Below, one piece after another: positions 12,650 to 22,995 of a stretch of 64,000 bases of DNA. The translations under genes were made by a program, and so were the position numbers. The DNA is from an uncultured delta proteobacterium (GTDB lineage Bacteria > Myxococcota_A > UBA9160 > SMWR01). The DNA lies in the NCBI GenBank assembly GCA_963832165.1, contig CAWHTE010000003.1:1-64000 (forward strand), read 5' to 3'. Under the pieces are notes generated by a model. It saw only the letters and a list, made by a program, of their open reading frames with translations. It was not told where the DNA came from and did not search any database. Within the stretch, counting starts at the first letter, position 1, and each line of letters starts with the position of its first letter.

Positions 12650-14579
12650 GTGTTGGTGTCGCATTCGCGTTCACGGGTTCGCGGACAGCTCGGGCTGCTC
12701 GGCCTCTTGGTTTCGGTTCTGCTGCCGGCCGCATCGTTGGCGCAGCAGATCCAGGCCAACTTCAGAGTGACGAGCGACTGGAAGACGGGTTTCACGGGTG
12801 AGATCGAGCTGATCAATAAGGGCGCGACGCCGATCTCGGGCTGGACGCTCGAGTTCGATCTCGGCGGCCAGATCGTCAATCTCTGGAATGCCCGAGTCAC
12901 CGCGAGCGGAACGCACTACACGGTTCGCGATCTGGGTTGGAATGGCGGAGTGCGCTCGGGCGGATCGGTCGTATTCGGATTCCAGGCTTCGTACTCCGGG
13001 GATCGCCCCGGACCGACCAACTGCCGCTTCAACGGCCAGGCCTGCTCGTTCGGCGGAGCCGTCCCCAGTCCGGGTCCCAGCGCGCCCGTGGCCGTGCCCG
13101 CTGGCATCCGCGTGGAATGGCGAAGCATCAGGACGTCGAGCACGACCTACGGGGGGCTGATCCGGATCGTCAACCAGACGAACGCCGCGTGGCCGGACTG
13201 GCAGCTGAAGTTCGATCTCGCGGGATCGATCCAGAGCGTCCAGGGCGCAACCGTGTCGAGCTCGAACAACCTGCGCACGGCTAGCACGTCCGACCCGAGC
13301 AAGACGTCGATTCCCCGCCGGCGGATTCGTCGCGTTTCTGTTGAGCGGGACCTACCAGGGTACGGCGCCCGCGCCCACGTCCTGCCTCTTGAACGGCCAG
13401 GTCTGTGTCTTCTCGAGCCTCACGCAGCCGGCACAAGTACCGCCGGCACCCGTTCCGCCGCCGCCGCTGCCTCCGCCGCCTAGCGGGGCCGCGGGCTTCC
13501 TCTCGATGTCGGGCGCGACGATGGTCGACTCGAAGGGAGTCCCCGTCCGGCTCACCGGCGTGAACTGGTTCGGCTTCGAGACGGCCAATCGCGCCGTCCA
13601 CGGACTGTGGTCGCGCGACTATCGCAGCATGCTGCACCAGGTCCGCGACCTGGGCTTCAACGCCGTGCGCATTCCCTGGAGCAACGCGATTCTCGAGCCC
13701 GGAGCCGCGCCGAACGGCATCACGTTCTCGGGCGCCGACCCGTACGACGGCGTCGCTCCGATGAACCAGCCCTTGCAGGGCAAGACCAGCATGCAGGTGC
13801 TCGACCTCGTCATCGAGGCCGCCGGCCGCTACGGCCTGAAGGTGATCCTCGACAATCACTCGCGGAAGCCGGACAACTTCATCGCCGAGGGTCTGTGGTA
13901 CCTGCCCGACTTCCCGGAGAGCCGTTGGATCGCGGACTGGAAGGCGATGGCGACCCGCTACCGCAACAACCCGACCGTGGTCGCGTTCGATCTGCACAAC
14001 GAGCCGCACAATCAGGCGAGCTGGGGCGGAGATCCCTCCACCGACTTCGCGTCGGCATACGAGCGCGCGGCCGCCGCGATCCACTCGGTCCATCCCGACG
14101 TGATCATCATCGCCGGCGGCGTGCAGACCTACGGCGGCATCTCGTACTGGTGGGGAGGCAATCTGCGCGGCGTGAGGACGCGACCGCTCCAGATCAACCG
14201 GACCAAGCTCCTGTACTCCGCACACGACTACGGTCCCGAAGTCTTTCCGCAGACGTGGTTCTCCGCTCCGAACTACCCGAGCAACCTGCCGGCCCTCTGG
14301 GACGAGACCTGGGGATACATCCCGAAGCTGGGTCTCGGAGGCGTGTTCATCGGTGAGTTCGGCATCGGACACGCGGATGCCTACCAGGGCCGGGCGCTGC
14401 AGTGGATCCAGTCGCTCATGGCCTACATGGGCCGAACCTCGTCCTGGACCTACTGGAGCCTGAACCCGAACTCCGGCGATACGGGCGGCATCCTCAAGGA
14501 CGACTGGGTCAGCGTGCAGCAGTGGAAGCTGGACGTGTTGACGCCCTATCTCGCAGCGCAGTTCCCAGCAAGTCAGTGA
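12650..14579 (+). CDS. CBM2-CBM2-GH5 endoglucanase (GH5_1-like), split by a +1 frameshift at about 13313-13316
   Basis: Signal peptide; two CBM2 (W..GF..., LWNA, FGFQ, C..NG..C); Pro linker; GVNWFGFET, ILDNH, LHNEPH, SAHDYG, IGEFG, YWSLNPNSGDTGG. Removing one C from the CCCC run joins ORFs 12506.. and 13341.. Confidence 0.88.
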
Positions 14580-14586
14580 TCGCATG

Positions 14587-17500
14587 CTAGGCGGCGTTCT
14601 CCCATGCCGGCATGACGGCCTTCGCCGGCTCCTCGATCTCTTCGAGACCCACACGCCAGAAGAACAGGAAGCGCCGCCGCGCGTTCACGACGCGGCCCCA
14701 GCGCAGATCGGAGATCCGCCACAGCTCGCCGGCGCGCGGCCGGCGTCCTGTGCACAGGAGTCCGACGCCGCCGGGTGAGGCGTCTCGCAGCCACACGCTG
14801 CGCCGGCGATTGCGGCCGAGCCGCCGCGGAATCCAGTAGGTCGTGCGCGCGGGATAGCGCCGACGCAGAACGCGGGAGCGGCGGAAGTAGCTGGCGATGC
14901 CGAGCACGAACGACGCCGCGAGTGCAAAACGGCCGCGCCGCTCCCGTTCGCGGAGCTCCTCCCAGGTCTCGCTGCGCGCGAACACGCCGAGCAGGATCGC
15001 CTTGCGCGTCGCGGGCGTCGGGTCGACGAAGCGCACTCCGATGTGGTCGCGCCGGCCGACGCGCTCGTGGAACACGAGCTCTGCGCGTACGCGCAGGCCG
15101 CCGTTCAGGCCCAGGACCAGATCGAATTCGTACGGGAGCACCATGCGCTCGTCGAGGCGCAGCGAGCAGCCCGACAGGCTGATCTCCTCGGTCGTGGCGT
15201 GGATCGACTTGTGCGGCTTGTTCTCGATCCGCACGGCCACCTCACAGGGAACGCGCTCTTCGGCGCGGCGCTGCGGCCGCTCCCACGCGATCAGCAGCGC
15301 ACCGAACAGGAACAGCAGGTTGTAGCTGGCCCAGATCAGGTTGAAGAAGTAGGCGTCCTGCTCGATTCCGAACGTCGAGAGCTCCCAGACGCCCTTGCCG
15401 ATGCCCGCCAGCGTGAGCAACGCGAACAAGAGCGTCCAGCGCGACGAGCGCCAGTCGAAGCGGTGTCCCTGCGAGACGATTCCCTTCGGCGTCGCCTTGA
15501 AGCCGAGCGTGCTCGGCAGCAGCAGGTCGAAGATCGAGCGCGCGAGCGGCGCACTCACCGTGCTCTCGTAGAACGGCGCCCAGAGCGGTCGCTGCCAGCC
15601 CGGCATCAGCACGGCGCTGATCAGCGGCAGCACGAGCAGGTAGGGCAGGAGCCGCGCCGTGAGCACCGCGACATCCGAGAAGATCGGGTGCAGGTGGAAG
15701 AACAGGTAGTAGAGCGGCGTCACCCAGAACACGACCCGGGCGAGCGGGAAGAAGAAGTGGTAGAGCGAGCCGAAGTAGGCCAGGCGCTGGCGCAGCGACA
15801 GTCCGCGGCAGAAGAGCGGGTTGTCCTTGAAGAAGATCTGGAGGCAGCCGAGCATCCAGCGCCGGCGCTGCACGACGTACGAGGACAGGTTCTCGGCCTC
15901 GAGACCGACCGCGAGCGCCTTGTTCACGTACACCGAGCGCCAGCCGGCCGCGTGCAGATGGATGCTCGTGTGGATGTCCTCGGTGATCGAGAGCACCTGG
16001 AAGCCGTTGACCGACTCGAGCGCCTCGCGCCGGAACACCGCGCCGCTGCCGACGAAGAACGCGCCGCCCCAGCCGTTGCGCGCGGGTTGGATGCCGCGGT
16101 GGAACAGGTCCGATTCGTTCGGAATGCGTCCCTCTAGCCGGAACGCGTGCTGGAAGATGTCGGGATTGCGGAACACGTGTGGCGTCTGGACCAGGCCCAC
16201 GTCCGAATCCGCGAACCACCGGACCGTCTCCTCGAGGAACGTCACGCACGGGATGTGATCGGTGTCGAACACCACGACCAGGTCGCCTTTCGTGCGCCCG
16301 AGCGCCGAGTTGAGATTGCCGGCCTTCGCGTGCTCGCGCGGGCCGCGCAGGTAATGGACCCCGAGCTTTTGTGCGAGCTCGCGCACCTCCTCGCGGTGCC
16401 CGTCGTCGAGCACGTGGATGGTGAAACGCGGGTAACGCATCGCTTTCGCCCCCACGAGCGTCAGCTCGAGGATCTCGAGCGGCTCGTGGAAGACCGGAAT
16501 CATGACGTCGACGCTCGGCAGGAAATTCTTCGAACGCGGCGGCTTCCGGCGGCGACCGCGGCCGATCCCGACCTGCACGAGCATGAGCAGCACCGATCCG
16601 AAGCAGTACAGCTCGGCAACCCAGAGCGAGATGCTGATGAACTCACCGCCCGGCTCCAGGTGGTTCAACGAGTCCGTTCCGCGCCACCAGAGATAGTGGA
16701 AGGCGACCGTGAACGCGCTCGCGAGGAACAGGAAGCGTGTCGGCCTCTGCCAGAGCGTCCCATGCGCGAGGCGCGCGAGCGGGAACAGCGCGAAACACAG
16801 CATGAGCGGAAGGATCGGCAGGTTGGTCTTGAACGACCGGAAGTCGAAGGGCAGGAGGAATCCCAGCGGCTCGTCGAAGCGCCGCGCTTCGCCCAGCCAG
16901 AGCACCTCGTCGAACCAGAGCCAGTTGTGGAGGTAGTAGGGCGTATCGCGGTTCTCGAGCGCCTTCGCGCGCAGCGCGACGAGCTTCTTGGTGTGCAGCT
17001 CCTGCGCGAACGGCTCGTCGGCGAGCTCGGCGAGCGCGTGCGCGGTGGCATAGAGCGGCAGCGCCTCGAGCTCCGAGAGCGCCTTGCCACTCGTCTCGTA
17101 GCGGTCGTAGATGCGCTCGTGCTGCTCGAAGCTCGCGCGCAGGGGGGCGAGCATGCGATCGTGCAGGGACGCGAGCTGGGCCTCGTCCCGCCACGATTCG
17201 TTCGCTTCGAGCTCGAGATCGCGCAGGGCCGCGATTCCGTCGAAATCGAGGATCGCGGTGCGCCAGTTCCAGGTCGCATCGAGTGCGACCCGCCAGAAGA
17301 TCGGAAACGCATCGTATCCGAACGCGGAGACCTCTCCGCTTTTCGGATCCTCGAGCTGGAGCTTTCCGCTCTGCGCGTCGACCCAGATCTTCTCGGGCGG
17401 CAGCTGCATGTCCTGATCGAAATAGATCCAGCGCAGGACCCGGTAGGAGGTGTCGATGACGCCGGCCCAGTTGTGCTCGCGGTCGACCTTCGCAAACTCC

Positions 17501-18081
17501 TTGTAGGCGTAGGGCGCCAGATAGCCGACGTGGATTTCGGCGATCGGTTCGCGTTTCGTCCAATCGCCGGCGGTCGGGTAGTAGACGCCGCCGACCGCGA
17601 GGATCTCGAAATTCCAGATGTCGCCGATGATCTCGAGCGCCTCGCGCTCGTAGGCCGGCTCGTCGAAGCGGCGAGATGCGAGCAGCAGCGCCAGCGCGAT
17701 GTCGGTATCCGCGTCGGTGGCCGCGTGCTTGTCGATCACGCCGTCCTTCCACTTCCACGCGAACAGGTAGTCCCCTCGCACGCGCAAGTTGCTCTTCGTC
17801 CAGGTCCAGACGCGCGCGAACGACTCCGGATCGTTCGACCAGACCGCGCGCAGCATCGCGTAGCCCTGTCCCTCGGAGGTGGTGATTCCGCCCTCGTCGG
17901 GGCTGATCACACGGCCGGCATCCGTGTAGCGGTATTGGTAAAGGGTCTCGAGCGCTTCGAGCGCGTCGAGGCGCTCGTATCGCTTTCCGCTACTCGAGCT
18001 CACCTGCGCGCTGGCCGTCGCTGCACAGCACAGGATCAGGAACACAACCGCTGCAGCTCTGCACACTTCCGCTCGCGACAT
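14587..18081 (-). CDS. bcsA: GH8 endoglucanase - cellulose synthase (BcsA-type GT2) - PilZ fusion protein
   Basis: Signal peptide; GH8 TTSEGQGYAM, ATDADTDIALAL, GYDA; TM helices; GT2 VLDDG, HAKAGNLN, FDTDH, QTPH, FFVGSG, TEDI, QRRRW; PilZ RRAEER...EISLSG; one uninterrupted ORF. Confidence 0.92.
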   Translation of the reverse strand: MSRAEVCRAAAVVFLILCCAATASAQVSSSSGKRYERLDALEALETLYQYRYTDAGRVISPDEGGITTSEGQGYAMLRAVWSNDPESFARVWTWTKSNLRVRGDYLFAWKWKDGVIDKHAATDADTDIALALLLASRRFDEPAYEREALEIIGDIWNFEILAVGGVYYPTAGDWTKREPIAEIHVGYLAPYAYKEFAKVDREHNWAGVIDTSYRVLRWIYFDQDMQLPPEKIWVDAQSGKLQLEDPKSGEVSAFGYDAFPIFWRVALDATWNWRTAILDFDGIAALRDLELEANESWRDEAQLASLHDRMLAPLRASFEQHERIYDRYETSGKALSELEALPLYATAHALAELADEPFAQELHTKKLVALRAKALENRDTPYYLHNWLWFDEVLWLGEARRFDEPLGFLLPFDFRSFKTNLPILPLMLCFALFPLARLAHGTLWQRPTRFLFLASAFTVAFHYLWWRGTDSLNHLEPGGEFISISLWVAELYCFGSVLLMLVQVGIGRGRRRKPPRSKNFLPSVDVMIPVFHEPLEILELTLVGAKAMRYPRFTIHVLDDGHREEVRELAQKLGVHYLRGPREHAKAGNLNSALGRTKGDLVVVFDTDHIPCVTFLEETVRWFADSDVGLVQTPHVFRNPDIFQHAFRLEGRIPNESDLFHRGIQPARNGWGGAFFVGSGAVFRREALESVNGFQVLSITEDIHTSIHLHAAGWRSVYVNKALAVGLEAENLSSYVVQRRRWMLGCLQIFFKDNPLFCRGLSLRQRLAYFGSLYHFFFPLARVVFWVTPLYYLFFHLHPIFSDVAVLTARLLPYLLVLPLISAVLMPGWQRPLWAPFYESTVSAPLARSIFDLLLPSTLGFKATPKGIVSQGHRFDWRSSRWTLLFALLTLAGIGKGVWELSTFGIEQDAYFFNLIWASYNLLFLFGALLIAWERPQRRAEERVPCEVAVRIENKPHKSIHATTEEISLSGCSLRLDERMVLPYEFDLVLGLNGGLRVRAELVFHERVGRRDHIGVRFVDPTPATRKAILLGVFARSETWEELRERERRGRFALAASFVLGIASYFRRSRVLRRRYPARTTYWIPRRLGRNRRRSVWLRDASPGGVGLLCTGRRPRAGELWRISDLRWGRVVNARRRFLFFWRVGLEEIEEPAKAVMPAWENAA

Positions 18082-18236: not shown

Positions 18237-19331
18237 TCAGCGCGCGCGGCGCCGCCGATGCAGGCGATCGAGCCACGCGAGCGCAGCCAATCCGGGCAGC
18301 AGCGCTGTGGGCTCGGGCAGCACGTGTGGCTGCATCACGGACATCTGCGGGCGATCCGCTTCGTTGGGCAGCGCGAGGTTCAGCGGATCGAGCGTGAACA
18401 TGTAGTCACCCCACCAGGGGCCACCTGCCCACCACGTCCAGCCGAGCCACACGTCGTCGTTCGCGTCGAGATGGCCGAGCATGTCGTGCAGCGCCTCGTC
18501 GCCGATCTGGCTCCCGCCGCTGCCGATCGAGCTGCTGGCCACCGCGAACTCACCGAGCAGGCCCTTGTAGCCGTGAGCCCGCAGCCACTGCGTGAAGCTC
18601 GCGAGCCGCTGCGATCCGATCGTCGGACTCGCGACCGCGGCGCTGGTTCCCGAGGAATCGCCGTCGAGGTACTGGTGAACCTCGAAAGCGAAGTTGTCGG
18701 CCGGGTCGACGATGCTCTGCATCGCGACGGCGTTCGCGGTGCCGTACCAGCTGTCCGACCAGCTGTGCGCACCGGTCCAGGCGTTTCCGGGCACGAGGAT
18801 CAGGTTGCCCGCGCCCGCGGCGCGGATCGCCGCGATCGCTGCATTCGCCGCGACCACCCATTGCTCCGTCGGCATGCTGTGCGGCTCGTTCATGAGGCCG
18901 AACATCACGCGCGGATTGTTCTTGTACTTCGCCGCCAGGCGCGACCAGAAATCCGCGAATGCCGAGTACGGCACCGAGGGGCTTCCGACGAGGTTGCCCT
19001 GGTAGCGCGCGTAGTTGTGCGGATCGAGGATCACGTGCGCGCCCGAAGCGGTGGCAAAGGCCACGACGGCGTCGAGCCGCGCGAGCTCCGTCGCGTCGAG
19101 CGGTGCCGAGAGCGTCCGCTGGAGCCGCTCCCATCGGAACGGAATCCGGAACAGGTTCATGCCCTTGTCGACGTAGTAGTCGATCTCGGCGGCGTTGGGA
19201 TAGATGTAGTGGCTGCCGTAGCTGCCCGGGAGCTGGCTCTCGCCGAACTCGGCGCCGGAAAGGTTGACGCCCGTGTAGTCGACGAGCGCCGACATGACAG
19301 CCGGACGCGCGAGCACACACACGAAGAGCAC
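18237..19331 (-). CDS. GH5 endoglucanase (GH5_5-like) with PEP-CTERM sorting signal
   Basis: GVNLSGAEFG, FRIPFRWER, DPHNYARY, LMNEPH, FEVHQYLD, LLGEF, WWAGGPWW; C-terminus LPEP-hydrophobic-RRRRAR. Confidence 0.92.
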   Translation of the reverse strand: MLFVCVLARPAVMSALVDYTGVNLSGAEFGESQLPGSYGSHYIYPNAAEIDYYVDKGMNLFRIPFRWERLQRTLSAPLDATELARLDAVVAFATASGAHVILDPHNYARYQGNLVGSPSVPYSAFADFWSRLAAKYKNNPRVMFGLMNEPHSMPTEQWVVAANAAIAAIRAAGAGNLILVPGNAWTGAHSWSDSWYGTANAVAMQSIVDPADNFAFEVHQYLDGDSSGTSAAVASPTIGSQRLASFTQWLRAHGYKGLLGEFAVASSSIGSGGSQIGDEALHDMLGHLDANDDVWLGWTWWAGGPWWGDYMFTLDPLNLALPNEADRPQMSVMQPHVLPEPTALLPGLAALAWLDRLHRRRRAR

Positions 19332-19521: not shown

Positions 19522-22500
19522 TCAGAACTCGAAGGCGAGCCTCGTCGACGCGCCGAAGCGCGTGTACGCCGCGCCGAGCGACTTCACCTCGGCGCCGATC
19601 CCCCAGTACACCGACGGGTGCAGGAAGAGCACCCACTCGAGCTTCCCCTGACCACCGGCTCCGACGTCCCAGCTCTCGCCGTTCTGATGCGACGCCTGGA
19701 CGGCCGGGCCGCCTTCGATGTCGAGGAACGCGCTCTCGCCCATGCGAATCGAGAGCGCGAGCCCCGGCTCGACGGAGCCGAAGCCCTGCGGGCTGAAATA
19801 GCCGCCGGGTCTCGGGCTGCCCTCCAGAAGGTCGACCCCGAACGCGTCGTAGTCGTAGTAGTAGCCCTCGGCCGCGAGCATCGGGGAGACCTCGACGTGA
19901 TCTCCGTCGAAGATCCGGTAGCGCATGTCCATGCGGCCGCCGCCGAACGCGTTGATGGAGGTGGCCTTCGCGTCGACGAAGCCGCCGTAGGGCTCGAGGT
20001 GGAACGTGCCCCTCTCGCCCTGGTAGCGCGTGAAGAAGCGCAGGCGATTCTCACGCGCGGAGCCGATCTTGCGCCCGTTGATCGTGTCGCCCACGAGCGC
20101 CACGTACGAGTCGTAACGGAGCGACCGCTCCGCCCCGAGGCCGACCTTCCAGCTCTCGCCGAGGTGGCTGTATTCGACGCGCCCCGGAATGCTGCGCTCG
20201 CCGATCCGGTGATAGCCGAGGCCGAGGCCGAACTCGTTGTTCTCGCCGTGGAAGTCCGTATCCACGCGCGCGAATCCGCCGCCGGTGTCGTCGTCTTCGT
20301 AGTCCAGCTGATCGTCGGTGCGGACCTTGCCCGAGTATTTCTCGGCGCCACCCTCGGCGCGCAGCGTCACGAACGTGCCGGTTTCGCCGCCGGCGTTGAG
20401 CCGACCGGCGCCGCCTCCCTGGACGCCCTCCAGCTCCGACTTGGTCCGGCCGCGCTGCACGACCCCGCGCACGAATCCCTGCAGTCGCGGATCGCGCCCG
20501 CGCATCAGGTCCTTGCGCAGCTCGAAGAGATCGCTCTCGCTTGCGCCGTAGCGGACCGCCAGGTTCGCCTCGCGCAGCGCCTGGTCGCGCTTGTGCTGCG
20601 CGGCGTAGCCGGCCGCGAGTCCCGCGTGGGCCGGTCCGTTCTTCGGCTCCCTCTCGATCACGTTCTCGTAGTGCTCGATCGCATCGGGCGTGGTCTCGCG
20701 TTCGCCCGCGAGCAGGCCCGCGAGCTTGAGGCGCACTCCGATGTTGTCCGGCTGCTCCTTCAGCAGCGCCTCGTACTGCTGCTGCGCCTCGGCGCGGCCC
20801 GCTTTCTCGCCCGAGAGCGCATCGGCGAGCGCCTCGCGCGTCTCGGGCCGCGGATCCGCAGCGAGGAGCTTGCGGTACTCCCCGATCGCCTCGTTGCGGC
20901 GTTTGGGATCGGCCGCAATCAGGCCCAGGTACTCGACGCGCAGCGTCTGGTCGTCGGGGCGGGCCTCGAGGAGACCGCGGTAGAGCCGCGCGGCCTCGTC
21001 GCTGCGCGGGTCGTCGCGCGCGAGCAGCCGCGCGAGCGTGTGGGCCACCTCGAAGTCGCCGGGCTTCTCCTTCGCATAGCGCCGGTACTCCGCGATCGCC
21101 TCCTTCGTGTTCTTCTCGTCCCAGAGCAGCGCCTTGCGGTACTCCGCGCGCAGCTCGGGATCTTCGGGCTTGTCCTTCGGCTGCGCCTTGATCAGCTCGC
21201 GGTACTGCGCGATCGCCTCGTCGACGTGCGCGCGATCCGACGCGAGCAGACGCGCGAGCTTGCGGCGCGTCGCGGGCTTCGGATCGCCCTTGAGGATGGT
21301 GCGGTACTGCTCGATCGCATCGTTGCGGCGCTGCGCGTTGCTCGCGAGCAGATCGGCGTACTCGAGACGCACCGCGTTGTTGGTGGGTTGCTTCTTGAGC
21401 ACGTCGGCGTAGACGGTGAGGGCTTCCTGGCTCGTCGGATCCTCGGCCGCGAGCATTTTCGCAAGTGCGTGCTGTGCTTCGGTGTCGCCGGGTCGCTCCG
21501 ACACGACGCGCCGGAGTTCCTGGATCGCGTCGGGCCGGTATCGCTCGTCCCAGAGCAGCAGGTCGCGGTACTCCGCGCGGTATTCGGGGTTTCCGGGGTC
21601 GCTCTGCACGAGTGTGCGGTACTGCTGGACGGCTTCGTCGATCTGCGCGCGATCCGACGCCAGCAGGCGCGCGAGCTTGTGGCGCGTTTCGGGCCGCGGG
21701 TCCCTCTCGAGGACGGTGCGGTACTCCGCGATCGCGTCGAAGCGTCGCTCATCGTTGGCCGCGAGCATGTCGGCGTACTCGAGCCGCAGCGCCAGATCGG
21801 AAGGTCGGCTGCGCACGACCTCTTCCTCGAGCTTCAGGGCCTCCTGGCTGCTCGGATTCTGTTTGACGAGCAGCTGGGCCAATGTGCGCTTCTGGTCGAG
21901 ATCGCTCGGCTTCGCGGCCACCACGCGCCGCTGCTCCTCGATCGACTCGTTGAGATGGCGGTCGTCCCAGAGCAGCAGCTTGCGATATTCCTCGCGCCAC
22001 TGTGCGTTGTTGGGCTGGGCCTTGAGCAGGATCTTGTACTGCTCGACCGCTTCGTTGAGGTTCGCGCGATCCGATGCCAGCAGGCGCGCATACTTGTGCC
22101 GCATCTCGGGGCTCGGGTCTTTCTCGACCAGCTTCTTGTACTGCGCGATCGCCTCCGAGTTCTGCTTCGAGCCGGCCGCGCCCGAGCCGGCCGAGCCCGA
22201 GAGCAGATCCGCGTACTCGCGGCGCAGCTTCTCGTCGTTCGGCTTCCGCTTGACGAGGTCGCCGTAGCGCCGGACCACCTCCTCGCTCTTCGGATTCTTG
22301 CGCGCGAGCAACGTGGCGAGCGTGTGATCGACTTCGAAGTCGCCCTTCTTCTCGTCGGCGTACTTCCGGTATTCCTGGATCGCCTCGTCGAGATTCTTGT
22401 CGTCCCAGACGAGGAGCTTGCGATACTCGTTGCGGATTTCGGCGTTGTTCGGCTTCGCCTTCAGCAGTGCGCGGTATTCCGTGAGCGCCTCGTTGATCTG

Positions 22501-22995
22501 CTTTTTGTCTCGAGCCAGCAGCTGGGCGAGCTTGTGGCGGCGGTCGGGGTCGTCGCGCACGGCCAGCCCCATCCTGTAGTACTTGATCGCGTCTTCCCGG
22601 CGGTAGGCGAAGCGCGACCAGCCCAGGTAGTCGGCCTGCTTGAACGCGATCTCGGCGTCGTCGTGAAAGCGCTCGAGGTAGCGGTCGTACTGCTTGATCG
22701 CGTCGGTGGTGAGGCCCTGCTTCTCGTACGCGACGCCGAGCTGCTTCATCGCCTCGCGATTGTCGGGATTGAGCTTGGTGACCTTCTGGTAGGCCTCGAT
22801 CGCGGCCTTGTAGTTCTTTATCTCCATGTTGCTGCGCCCGCGCTCGAGGTACCACTTCTCGGTGCCCTCCTTCAGCTGCGCTTGCATCGCCGCCGGAGCG
22901 AGCAGCGCGAGTCCGATCGCTGCGAGCACGGCGCCGACGGAGGCGCGGAGGTTTCGAGGGCGGGTTCTGCGGGTGCATTTCGGCAACGGCGGCAT
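19522..22995 (-). CDS. TPR-repeat protein with C-terminal outer-membrane beta-barrel (BcsC-like export protein)
   Basis: Signal peptide; about 20 TPR-like repeats; about 330-aa C-terminal region of amphipathic strands containing GGYFSPQ and ending RLAFEF. Confidence 0.8.
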   Translation of the reverse strand: MPPLPKCTRRTRPRNLRASVGAVLAAIGLALLAPAAMQAQLKEGTEKWYLERGRSNMEIKNYKAAIEAYQKVTKLNPDNREAMKQLGVAYEKQGLTTDAIKQYDRYLERFHDDAEIAFKQADYLGWSRFAYRREDAIKYYRMGLAVRDDPDRRHKLAQLLARDKKQINEALTEYRALLKAKPNNAEIRNEYRKLLVWDDKNLDEAIQEYRKYADEKKGDFEVDHTLATLLARKNPKSEEVVRRYGDLVKRKPNDEKLRREYADLLSGSAGSGAAGSKQNSEAIAQYKKLVEKDPSPEMRHKYARLLASDRANLNEAVEQYKILLKAQPNNAQWREEYRKLLLWDDRHLNESIEEQRRVVAAKPSDLDQKRTLAQLLVKQNPSSQEALKLEEEVVRSRPSDLALRLEYADMLAANDERRFDAIAEYRTVLERDPRPETRHKLARLLASDRAQIDEAVQQYRTLVQSDPGNPEYRAEYRDLLLWDERYRPDAIQELRRVVSERPGDTEAQHALAKMLAAEDPTSQEALTVYADVLKKQPTNNAVRLEYADLLASNAQRRNDAIEQYRTILKGDPKPATRRKLARLLASDRAHVDEAIAQYRELIKAQPKDKPEDPELRAEYRKALLWDEKNTKEAIAEYRRYAKEKPGDFEVAHTLARLLARDDPRSDEAARLYRGLLEARPDDQTLRVEYLGLIAADPKRRNEAIGEYRKLLAADPRPETREALADALSGEKAGRAEAQQQYEALLKEQPDNIGVRLKLAGLLAGERETTPDAIEHYENVIEREPKNGPAHAGLAAGYAAQHKRDQALREANLAVRYGASESDLFELRKDLMRGRDPRLQGFVRGVVQRGRTKSELEGVQGGGAGRLNAGGETGTFVTLRAEGGAEKYSGKVRTDDQLDYEDDDTGGGFARVDTDFHGENNEFGLGLGYHRIGERSIPGRVEYSHLGESWKVGLGAERSLRYDSYVALVGDTINGRKIGSARENRLRFFTRYQGERGTFHLEPYGGFVDAKATSINAFGGGRMDMRYRIFDGDHVEVSPMLAAEGYYYDYDAFGVDLLEGSPRPGGYFSPQGFGSVEPGLALSIRMGESAFLDIEGGPAVQASHQNGESWDVGAGGQGKLEWVLFLHPSVYWGIGAEVKSLGAAYTRFGASTRLAFEF

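Follow-up and report, generated by a model that had tools for sequence, protein, structure and literature searches.

Bacterial cellulose secretion of the textbook kind relies on the helper protein BcsB, and proteobacterial bcs operons encode the GH8 enzyme BcsZ as a separate protein (examples are E. coli bcsRQABZC and R. sphaeroides BcsA-BcsB, structures 4p00/4hg6, with BcsZ 3qxf and BcsC 6tzk/9b8a). In E. coli and Rhodobacter, BcsA is reported to be unable to dispense with the C-terminal anchor of BcsB for its catalysis (PMC8892547). In E. coli, export is reported to need hydrolysis by BcsZ, and the first tetratricopeptide repeat (TPR) docks on BcsB (PMC11379886). Here we analyze the first 64,000 nucleotides (the window) of contig CAWHTE010000003.1 from an uncultured delta proteobacterium (assembly GCA_963832165.1). 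We describe the domain order, folds, conserved catalytic residues, invariant barrel pairing and undetectable BcsB of a system built around a 1164-residue GH8-BcsA-PilZ-PilZ fusion protein (P0001; gene at 14587..18081, minus strand, defined by open reading frame (ORF), Pfam and AlphaFold2). From sequence and predicted structure, we think it fairly likely that the fusion and a BcsC-like exporter form a two-protein machine for cellulose synthesis and export that is gated by cyclic di-GMP (c-di-GMP), works without BcsB and carries a tethered, trimming GH8.

The fusion system shares with proteobacterial Bcs a BcsA fold from transmembrane helix 2 (TM2) to the C-terminal helix, the GT2 signature, the gating-loop motif, PilZ, a GH8 cellulase, and an exporter with TPRs and a 16-strand barrel. 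It differs in having GH8 on the synthase chain, no TM1, a second PilZ and an Arg-to-Pro change in GH8, and its locus lacks BcsB and the other bcs accessory genes. In its motif, the GH8 resembles CelA of C. thermocellum and the GH8s of monoderms more than it does BcsZ. Compared with canonical Bcs types I-III, the locus has the BcsC-type TPR/barrel protein and not the BcsB co-polymerase, and because BcsB is missing, we do not count it among them.

Other known systems resemble the fusion in part. In ascidian CesA, the hydrolase domain is a C-terminal GH6. This enzyme likewise unites synthase and hydrolase in one polypeptide, as its source describes it (PMC8892547), but it is eukaryotic and has neither PilZ nor barrel partner. 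Cyanobacterial XcsABC (Thermosynechococcus vulcanus) is described as combining a PilZ synthase with an endoglucanase and no BcsB (PMC8892547, PMC12430437). Its endoglucanase is separate, however, and it has an HlyD-like partner and TolC, whereas our locus has no HlyD gene and a BcsC-like exporter. Pseudomonad GH17-GT2 proteins of the Orphan/NdvB type are reported to place a signal peptide, a periplasmic hydrolase, transmembrane segments and a BcsA-like GT2 on one chain (PMC10237404). Their hydrolase is a GH17 TIM barrel and their proposed product a cyclic β-1,3-glucan, whereas the fusion has an inverting GH8 in place of a TIM barrel, tandem PilZ domains and an outer-membrane exporter. Streptomyces CslA-GlxA and clostridial CcsA-CcsB also make cellulose without canonical BcsB (10.1101/2023.11.20.567928), but are described as still depending on a further subunit anchored in the membrane, and they lack an outer membrane; we found no gene for such a partner here. 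The CrdS/BgsA type does not fit either: PilZ is present, the locus has no HlyD gene, residues of this type are a minority at the diagnostic positions, and the fusion stands apart from S. meliloti BgsA in a tree without CrdS.

Full-text literature searches gave no description of a GH8-BcsA fusion, though a brief mention in survey supplements or CAZy is possible. The consulted text of an operon survey reports BcsAB and BcsZC fusions, not BcsZ-BcsA, and takes bcsA plus bcsB as the sign of a functional locus (PMC7112194); surveys using that mark would therefore miss this family. Judging by its sequence, the system varies the known theme of synthase-dependent cellulose secretion in a new way, and is predicted to work like BcsA, BcsZ and BcsC together.

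Domain architecture of the fusion protein

The fusion gene reads from 18081 to 14587, with an ATG start and no internal stop; the plus-strand reading of this interval is not the gene. We prefer this ATG to an alternative GTG at 18276 because GAGG sits 7-10 nt 5′ of it. Pfam places GH8 at residues 52-272 (E 1e-25), GT2 at 522-744 and PilZ at 937-1031 (E 1.9e-11). The motifs DDG, FDTDH, TED, QRRRW, SEG and YDAFP are each found in the protein, and an AlphaFold2 model from an alignment of 68 sequences has pLDDT 86.6 and pTM 0.78. Pfam, motifs and fold matches agree with the initial annotation, which had read this stretch as a single unbroken ORF for a signal peptide, GH8, BcsA-type GT2 and PilZ domains. 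A stop between GH8 and GT2, which would have undone that proposal, is absent, and a soil-metagenome contig with 0 differences, which may stem from the source sample, crosses the GH8/TM2/TM3 junction (16653-16924); the contigs placed on the window do not cover the gene from end to end. This identical contig and the fused relatives in other genomes exclude an assembly artifact. A promoter and terminator scan returned no promoters, and 5 terminators compared to 5.1 in shuffled sequences.

A predicted Sec signal peptide with an A-x-A end, assigned by eye and hydropathy, occupies residues 1-25 (18007..18081; this and all further features of the fusion are on the minus strand). The periplasmic GH8 domain has an (α/α)6 fold (residues 30-405, 16867..17994) and, in the model, superposes on CelA (1kwf) with Z 40.0 and a root-mean-square deviation (rmsd) of 2.2 over 326 aligned residues. 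E70 (acid), D123 and D257 (base) line up with CelA E95, D152 and D278, and these three residues and Y383 are unchanged in 68 of 68 family members. The fold, the acid Glu, the -1 subsite Asp and the base Asp of a GH8 enzyme are thus all in place; the departure, P260 for the usual Arg, is taken up below. The fused domain is the sole GH8 found in the window's own genome, and the same is true of three other hosts.

The synthase portion, residues 413-1067, matches R. sphaeroides BcsA (4p00, residues 34-727) with Z 36.2 and rmsd 3.6 over 648 aligned residues, and has the BcsA fold with transmembrane channel and C-terminal PilZ, TM1 being absent. Its cytosolic GT2 core (residues about 520-750, 15832..16524) carries DDG, HAKAG, FDTDH, QTPH, FFVGS, TED and QRRRW. 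The D,D,D,QxxRW signature, KAG, QTPH and an FxVTxK-type gating motif are invariant or nearly so among the 68 members; the gating-loop FxxTxK lies at residues 861-866, where the window copy has Ala for Val.

Between GH8 and the synthase lie a conserved linker (residues 396-421, 16819..16896), with a short helix at 414-420, and then a helix at residues 423-438 (16768..16815). The initial annotation suggested that the tethered GH8 and the helix after it may replace BcsB, and for the helix our analysis leads to a different assignment. The helix is in register with TM2 of R. sphaeroides BcsA, and the fold alignment starts at residue 34 of BcsA. A profile of residues 410-470 matches the N-terminal helices of BcsA proteins. 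Against three BcsB proteins, profiles covering residues 396-443 and 396-420 give scores below zero, with no likeness to the BcsB C-termini. The helix is therefore BcsA's own TM2, and the lost piece is TM1. The same results exclude the linker as a BcsB anchor; its mean column identity, 0.72, is the same as that of GH8.

The chain ends in two PilZ domains, PilZ1 (residues 937-1031, 14989..15273) and PilZ2 (residues about 1070-1152, 14626..14874). Pfam run on PilZ2 alone gives no PilZ match, and this domain had been described as degenerate. That view does not survive at the motif level: RxxxR and [DN]xSxxG are present in 64 of 68 aligned members, RxxxR and DxSxxG are intact in the window copy, and hhalign aligns PilZ2 to PilZ1 at 91% (E 1.1e-6; two controls reach about 0.1%). 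The deviant c-di-GMP motif in the window is instead that of PilZ1, which retains RxxxR but reads ExSxxG, with E966 where 60 of 68 members have Asp (both motifs are found in 61 of 68). The window's own genome has 11 GGDEF matches above cut-off.

The exporter and the search for BcsB

The BcsC-like exporter, a protein of 1157 residues (19522..22995, minus strand), consists of a signal peptide, a long TPR array and a C-terminal 16-strand barrel (about 19525-20490). Because its sequence scores to BcsC are weak and under the family cut-offs, we folded its last 378 residues. The resulting model (pLDDT 91.1) has 16 long strands, and its best Foldseek match is E. coli BcsC (E 1.6e-17). In a comparison with 48,161 chains, E. 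coli BcsC (6tzk) is also at the top with Z 31.1 and rmsd 5.2 over 359 aligned residues, followed by PelB (Z 25.7), PgaA (24.5) and the next match at 17.1.

In the window, the exporter gene lies 1.4 kb upstream of the fusion with a GH5 gene in between. We collected 56 fusion loci, 13 of which are too short or lack the relevant part; in all 43 whose DNA extends 1 kb or more past PilZ1, a TPR/barrel gene lies within 1 kb downstream of the fusion. The barrel fold and this pairing bear out the earlier proposal of a two-component system with a TPR/barrel protein. Across phyla, the N-terminal TPR block of the exporter is 48-69% identical to the window copy and the barrel 22-41%, which suggests that the block is a docking surface. 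A complex prediction for the GH8 domain and this block scored 0.00 in two runs and bears neither way. Exporter length varies from about 526 residues (Nitrospira, e.g. L030:13416-14996) through about 700 to 1157 in the window, the N-terminal block being conserved throughout, and the length of the TPR array may track periplasm width.

The lack of bcsB in the locus, noted in the initial annotation, is confirmed by profile search, and the genome-wide search proposed there points the same way. In the window's own genome, which is 89.4% complete, PF03170 gives zero matches at E≤10, and tblastn with three annotated BcsB proteins reaches a best E of 0.25. Among 46 other hosts, PF03170 finds BcsB in two and none in 44. 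Both positive hosts are Fibrobacterota, in which BcsB sits beside a second BcsA that is ~36% identical to the fusion and groups with canonical enzymes. NF008323 is found in 0 of 20 genomes (nine of them at least 90% complete), BcsB was not found on the complete N. moscoviensis chromosome, and no BcsB is fused within the family. Nor does any third gene recur across phyla among the neighbors listed; the clusters are lineage-specific and functionally unrelated.

Distribution, relatives and neighboring genes

Our homologue search scored 8000 candidates, 384 of them at E≤0.001, and the best 120 of these 384 are described here. GH8 and GT2 are on one chain in 119 of these 120 matches (query included), and 117 have a Pfam PilZ too. 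An architecture survey, suggested as a check on the initial annotation, thus finds the fusion recurring in six phylum-level groups. Under the names used in the sources and record titles, the hosts are Myxococcota (including Anaeromyxobacter), Nitrospirota (including N. moscoviensis), Bdellovibrionota, Fibrobacterota, KSB1 and Zixibacteria. The 56 genome loci cover at least five phyla, and a strict first look finds the fusion in at least 12 of 151 genomes of the window's own order, its own genome counted. Cultured carriers are Nitrospira moscoviensis, Anaeromyxobacter terrae and A. soli. Database names for family members are often just ‘glycosyl hydrolase family 8’ or ‘cellulase’. Among plasmid records, 463 matched, all below 60% identity with the best listed at 36-37%, and no fusion is among the 60 listed.

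A quick tree of 48 GT2 cores joins the 39 fused rows in one clade (SH-aLRT 100) on a long stem, apart from canonical BcsA and S. meliloti BgsA; the tree has no CrdS row. Within the family, some relatives encode both proteins as one. GH8, BcsA, PilZ, TPR and barrel lie in a single frame of ~1665 residues at L038:9992-15001, L040:10028-15013 and L042:10007-14992, with no N in the DNA, and P0121 and P0123 are close kin of these forms. P0136, P0138 and P0351 have the same order with other junctions, giving four junction sequences in all; P0137, whose PilZ2 region is frameshift-like, was left out of this count. In the one-ORF forms, PilZ2 is gone and a hydrophobic stretch with an A-x-A end precedes the TPR block, which likely means an internal signal peptide and a polyprotein that is cut. 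These forms make up two separate groups in the quick tree, and a single origin is not rejected (approximately unbiased test, p 0.078; the tree tested did not include P0351). The existence of one-ORF forms supports fusion and exporter as one functional unit. P0136 and P0351 have in addition an extra N-terminal domain of unknown kind.

Among the nearest unfused synthases, we inspected 16 proteins from 50%-cluster representatives, with gene starts unverified. The TM3 motif YxxWR is at residue 28-53 in 14 of the 16 (743-784 residues), whereas three canonical BcsA proteins have it no earlier than ~66, and these 14 start at about TM2; one of them, P0359, is probably a family-member fragment that lacks GH8. 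By eye, most of the 14 have a second PilZ-like tail, and P0363 and L090 have two Pfam PilZ stretches. Because the nearest unfused synthases begin at TM2 too, BcsB-independence may predate the fusion. We infer that GH8 was added at the periplasmic N-terminus, and that the synthase receiving it already lacked TM1, already had tandem PilZ and was perhaps, with one genome as the basis, already free of BcsB. At L090:7208-10161, in a same-order genome with no BcsB matches, an unfused TM1-less BcsA-PilZ-PilZ is followed by a BcsS-like small barrel; this synthase was placed on a long branch in the quick tree. Many synthases of 745-785 residues resemble it, and L090-type synthases are possibly a wider BcsB-less family.

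Several further members vary in their GH8. P0010, P0014, P0021, P0024 and P0034 have, by eye, a lipobox-like Cys after the signal stretch, and the GH8 of such members may be anchored at both ends. P0356, a fusion that has diverged to 33% identity, shows decay of its GT2 motifs, lacks the YD motif in the GH8 active site, and may be an inactive paralogue.

The genes around the fusion encode other cellulases. The GH5 gene between exporter and fusion (18237..19331, minus strand, co-oriented, identified by Pfam) was found in none of the relatives' loci and is probably accessory. Its product ends in a PEP-like motif, a hydrophobic stretch and a basic tail, which we take to be reminiscent of a PEP-CTERM sorting signal, although Pfam and NCBIfam profiles gave no match. 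A CBM2-CBM2-GH5 cellulase gene (12650-14579, plus strand) converges on the fusion and is split by a frameshift near 13260-13291. The CBM2-GH5 copy in same-genus locus L089 is in one frame, and the split is either a sequencing error or a pseudogene. GH6 cellulase and AmpG-like MFS transporter genes follow on the minus strand (10088-about 11200 and 11236-about 12500). GH6 and CBM2-GH5 flank the fusion in L089 too, and form a genus-level cellulase cluster beside the synthase. We rejected GH5, GH6 and CBM2-GH5 as core parts because they are found only in the window or in one same-genus locus. The same-genus genome itself (G185) holds two fusion copies, on contigs C35 and C204 (L088 and L089), one in the usual fusion-then-barrel order and one syntenic with the window.

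A proposed mechanism and its alternatives

We propose that the signal peptide would lead GH8 into the periplasm and that TM2 would halt transfer, with GH8 taking the place of BcsA TM1. Binding of c-di-GMP to PilZ1, PilZ2 or both would open the gating loop, and the GT2 core would add glucose from UDP-glucose and drive the chain through the transmembrane channel. The tethered GH8, one per synthase, would now and then cut a stalled or mis-routed chain, which is the job of BcsZ, at a rate that is probably tuned down because the chain-holding Arg is now Pro. The TPR array would then pass the chain on to the barrel in the outer membrane. Unfused relatives that lack TM1 exist, so the membrane core probably needs no partner helix to be stable. 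More tentatively, and stopping short of calling it probable, we suggest that the synthase may be self-sufficient without a co-polymerase, that the retuned cellulase may act as a 1:1 proofreader or length-setter where the chain leaves the channel, and that some relatives may hold the whole pathway in one ORF. The product of this ORF, a polyprotein with an internal signal peptide, would either be cleaved by signal peptidase or stay one chain across the envelope.

Several observations weigh against this proposal. The Arg three residues past the catalytic base (CelA R281, EbBcsZ R245) is Pro in 68 of 68 members. In structural comparison, the GH8 model matches a β-1,3-1,4-glucanase (5xd0, Z 39.7) in a tie with CelA, with BcsZ (3qxf) at Z 35.8. 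NCBIfam scores fall below the cut-offs for BcsZ (85.6 compared to 299), CelA (TIGR03030, 529.5 compared to 699.1) and PRK11498 (409.3 compared to 992), and we predict a synthase that works like BcsA yet falls outside the curated equivalog. Curdlan or mixed-linkage-type residues occupy five linkage-diagnostic positions in the window copy and six in the family, and seven positions match no type. The BcsB survey covers an own genome that is 89% complete and hosts that are mostly metagenome-assembled genomes, and BcsB profiles would miss a non-homologous partner of the kind that Streptomyces CslA has in GlxA.

The Arg-to-Pro change bears most directly on what GH8 does. This Arg is reported to hold the cleaved chain in BcsZ and CelA (PMC8805304). 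The earlier reading, in which GH8 keeps SEG and YDA but reads YDAFP, was correct, and the change extends family-wide. R264 is not a stand-in for the lost Arg, as it aligns with a different Arg that CelA has too. In 120 shorter matches, the motif has Arg in 69 cases and Pro in 26, and could not be located in the other 25. On inspection, the Arg-type matches proved to be free-standing GH8s (31-46% identity), and the Pro-type matches fragments or paralogues of the fusion clade. The nearest free GH8s outside that clade retain Arg. Altered activity is plausible, and the simplest reading is a predicted active but retuned endoglucanase. A GH8 that mainly binds or guides the chain, hydrolyzing little and standing in for BcsB in the periplasm, comes close to the initial annotation without its anchor helix, and seems unlikely to us. 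It would suit a Pro confined to clade members, a linker as conserved as GH8 itself, and the expectation that a cellulase held at the channel exit would shred the product if it worked at full rate. However, an invariant acid, base, -1 subsite Asp and acid-positioning Tyr are hard to keep without catalysis, and unfused TM1-less synthases manage without GH8 on the chain. The Pro state is also not bound to the tether, since a free Pro-type GH8 paralogue directly follows the fusion and barrel genes in two metagenome loci (L099:7977-9116 and L103:7923-9056).

If GH8 is active, it could instead cut every chain at a set length, coupling synthesis and cleavage to yield a short soluble cello-oligosaccharide or low-molecular-weight glucan, and not a matrix fiber, by analogy with GH17-GT2 proteins. 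We give this only a slim chance. The covalent 1:1 tether with a linker of about 25 residues, the reported fusion of a BcsA-like GT2 with a GH17 in the periplasm (PMC10237404) and the very short TPR arrays of Nitrospira exporters (about 526 residues in all) are consistent with it. A polymer exporter of BcsC fold is nonetheless kept in 43 of 43 loci, and is long in the window genome, and GH8 enzymes are described as inverting (PMC8805304), so cyclizing or transglycosylation is not expected.

The same machine could also make a mixed-linkage (1,3;1,4) or other β-glucan, which we regard as distinctly improbable. Using motif offsets, we manually placed the linkage-diagnostic positions of PMC6821405 (S8 Table) on the fusion and tallied 30 of 33: 11 are cellulose-only, including the YE pair, 7 are shared or compatible, 5 are of the curdlan or mixed-linkage type, and 7 match none. 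Q644, Q657 (family), R668, V677, A729 and Y735 are CrdS/BgsA states near the channel entrance, and a different product would also fit the long stem of the clade away from both cellulose clades and a GH8 that matches the lichenase fold as well as the cellulase fold. Set against these are the cellulose-only residues H609, H635, N655, D658, F676, A681, H710, S716, F776, Y838 and E839, and the observation that R. sphaeroides BcsA also has Gln at the first CrdS/BgsA-type site. In addition, PilZ is present here and reported absent from CrdS and BgsA (PMC6821405), and the tree places the fusion with BcsA, not BgsA. We conclude that cellulose is the likeliest product, as a prediction and not a certainty.

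An unrecognized partner encoded elsewhere that provides the BcsB function is highly improbable: non-homologous co-polymerases are described (GlxA, HlyD-like proteins) and BcsB profiles have limited sensitivity (above cut-off in only 2 of 14 control genomes), but no third gene recurs across phyla among the neighbors listed, and the cassette, in its two-gene or one-ORF form, has a patchy distribution over six phylum-level groups.

If our proposal of a BcsB-free synthase with its own trimming cellulase is correct, the fusion and its exporter would be a very small cellulose secretion system, of two genes or one, and of use for heterologous production. It would also make testable an old question, namely why a cellulase accompanies cellulose synthases in organisms as different as bacteria, plants and tunicates. 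In the fusion, the stoichiometry and position of GH8 relative to the synthase are fixed, and single mutants would therefore reveal the role of GH8. For Nitrospira, the product of this family would be a candidate matrix polymer of the aggregates that these bacteria form.

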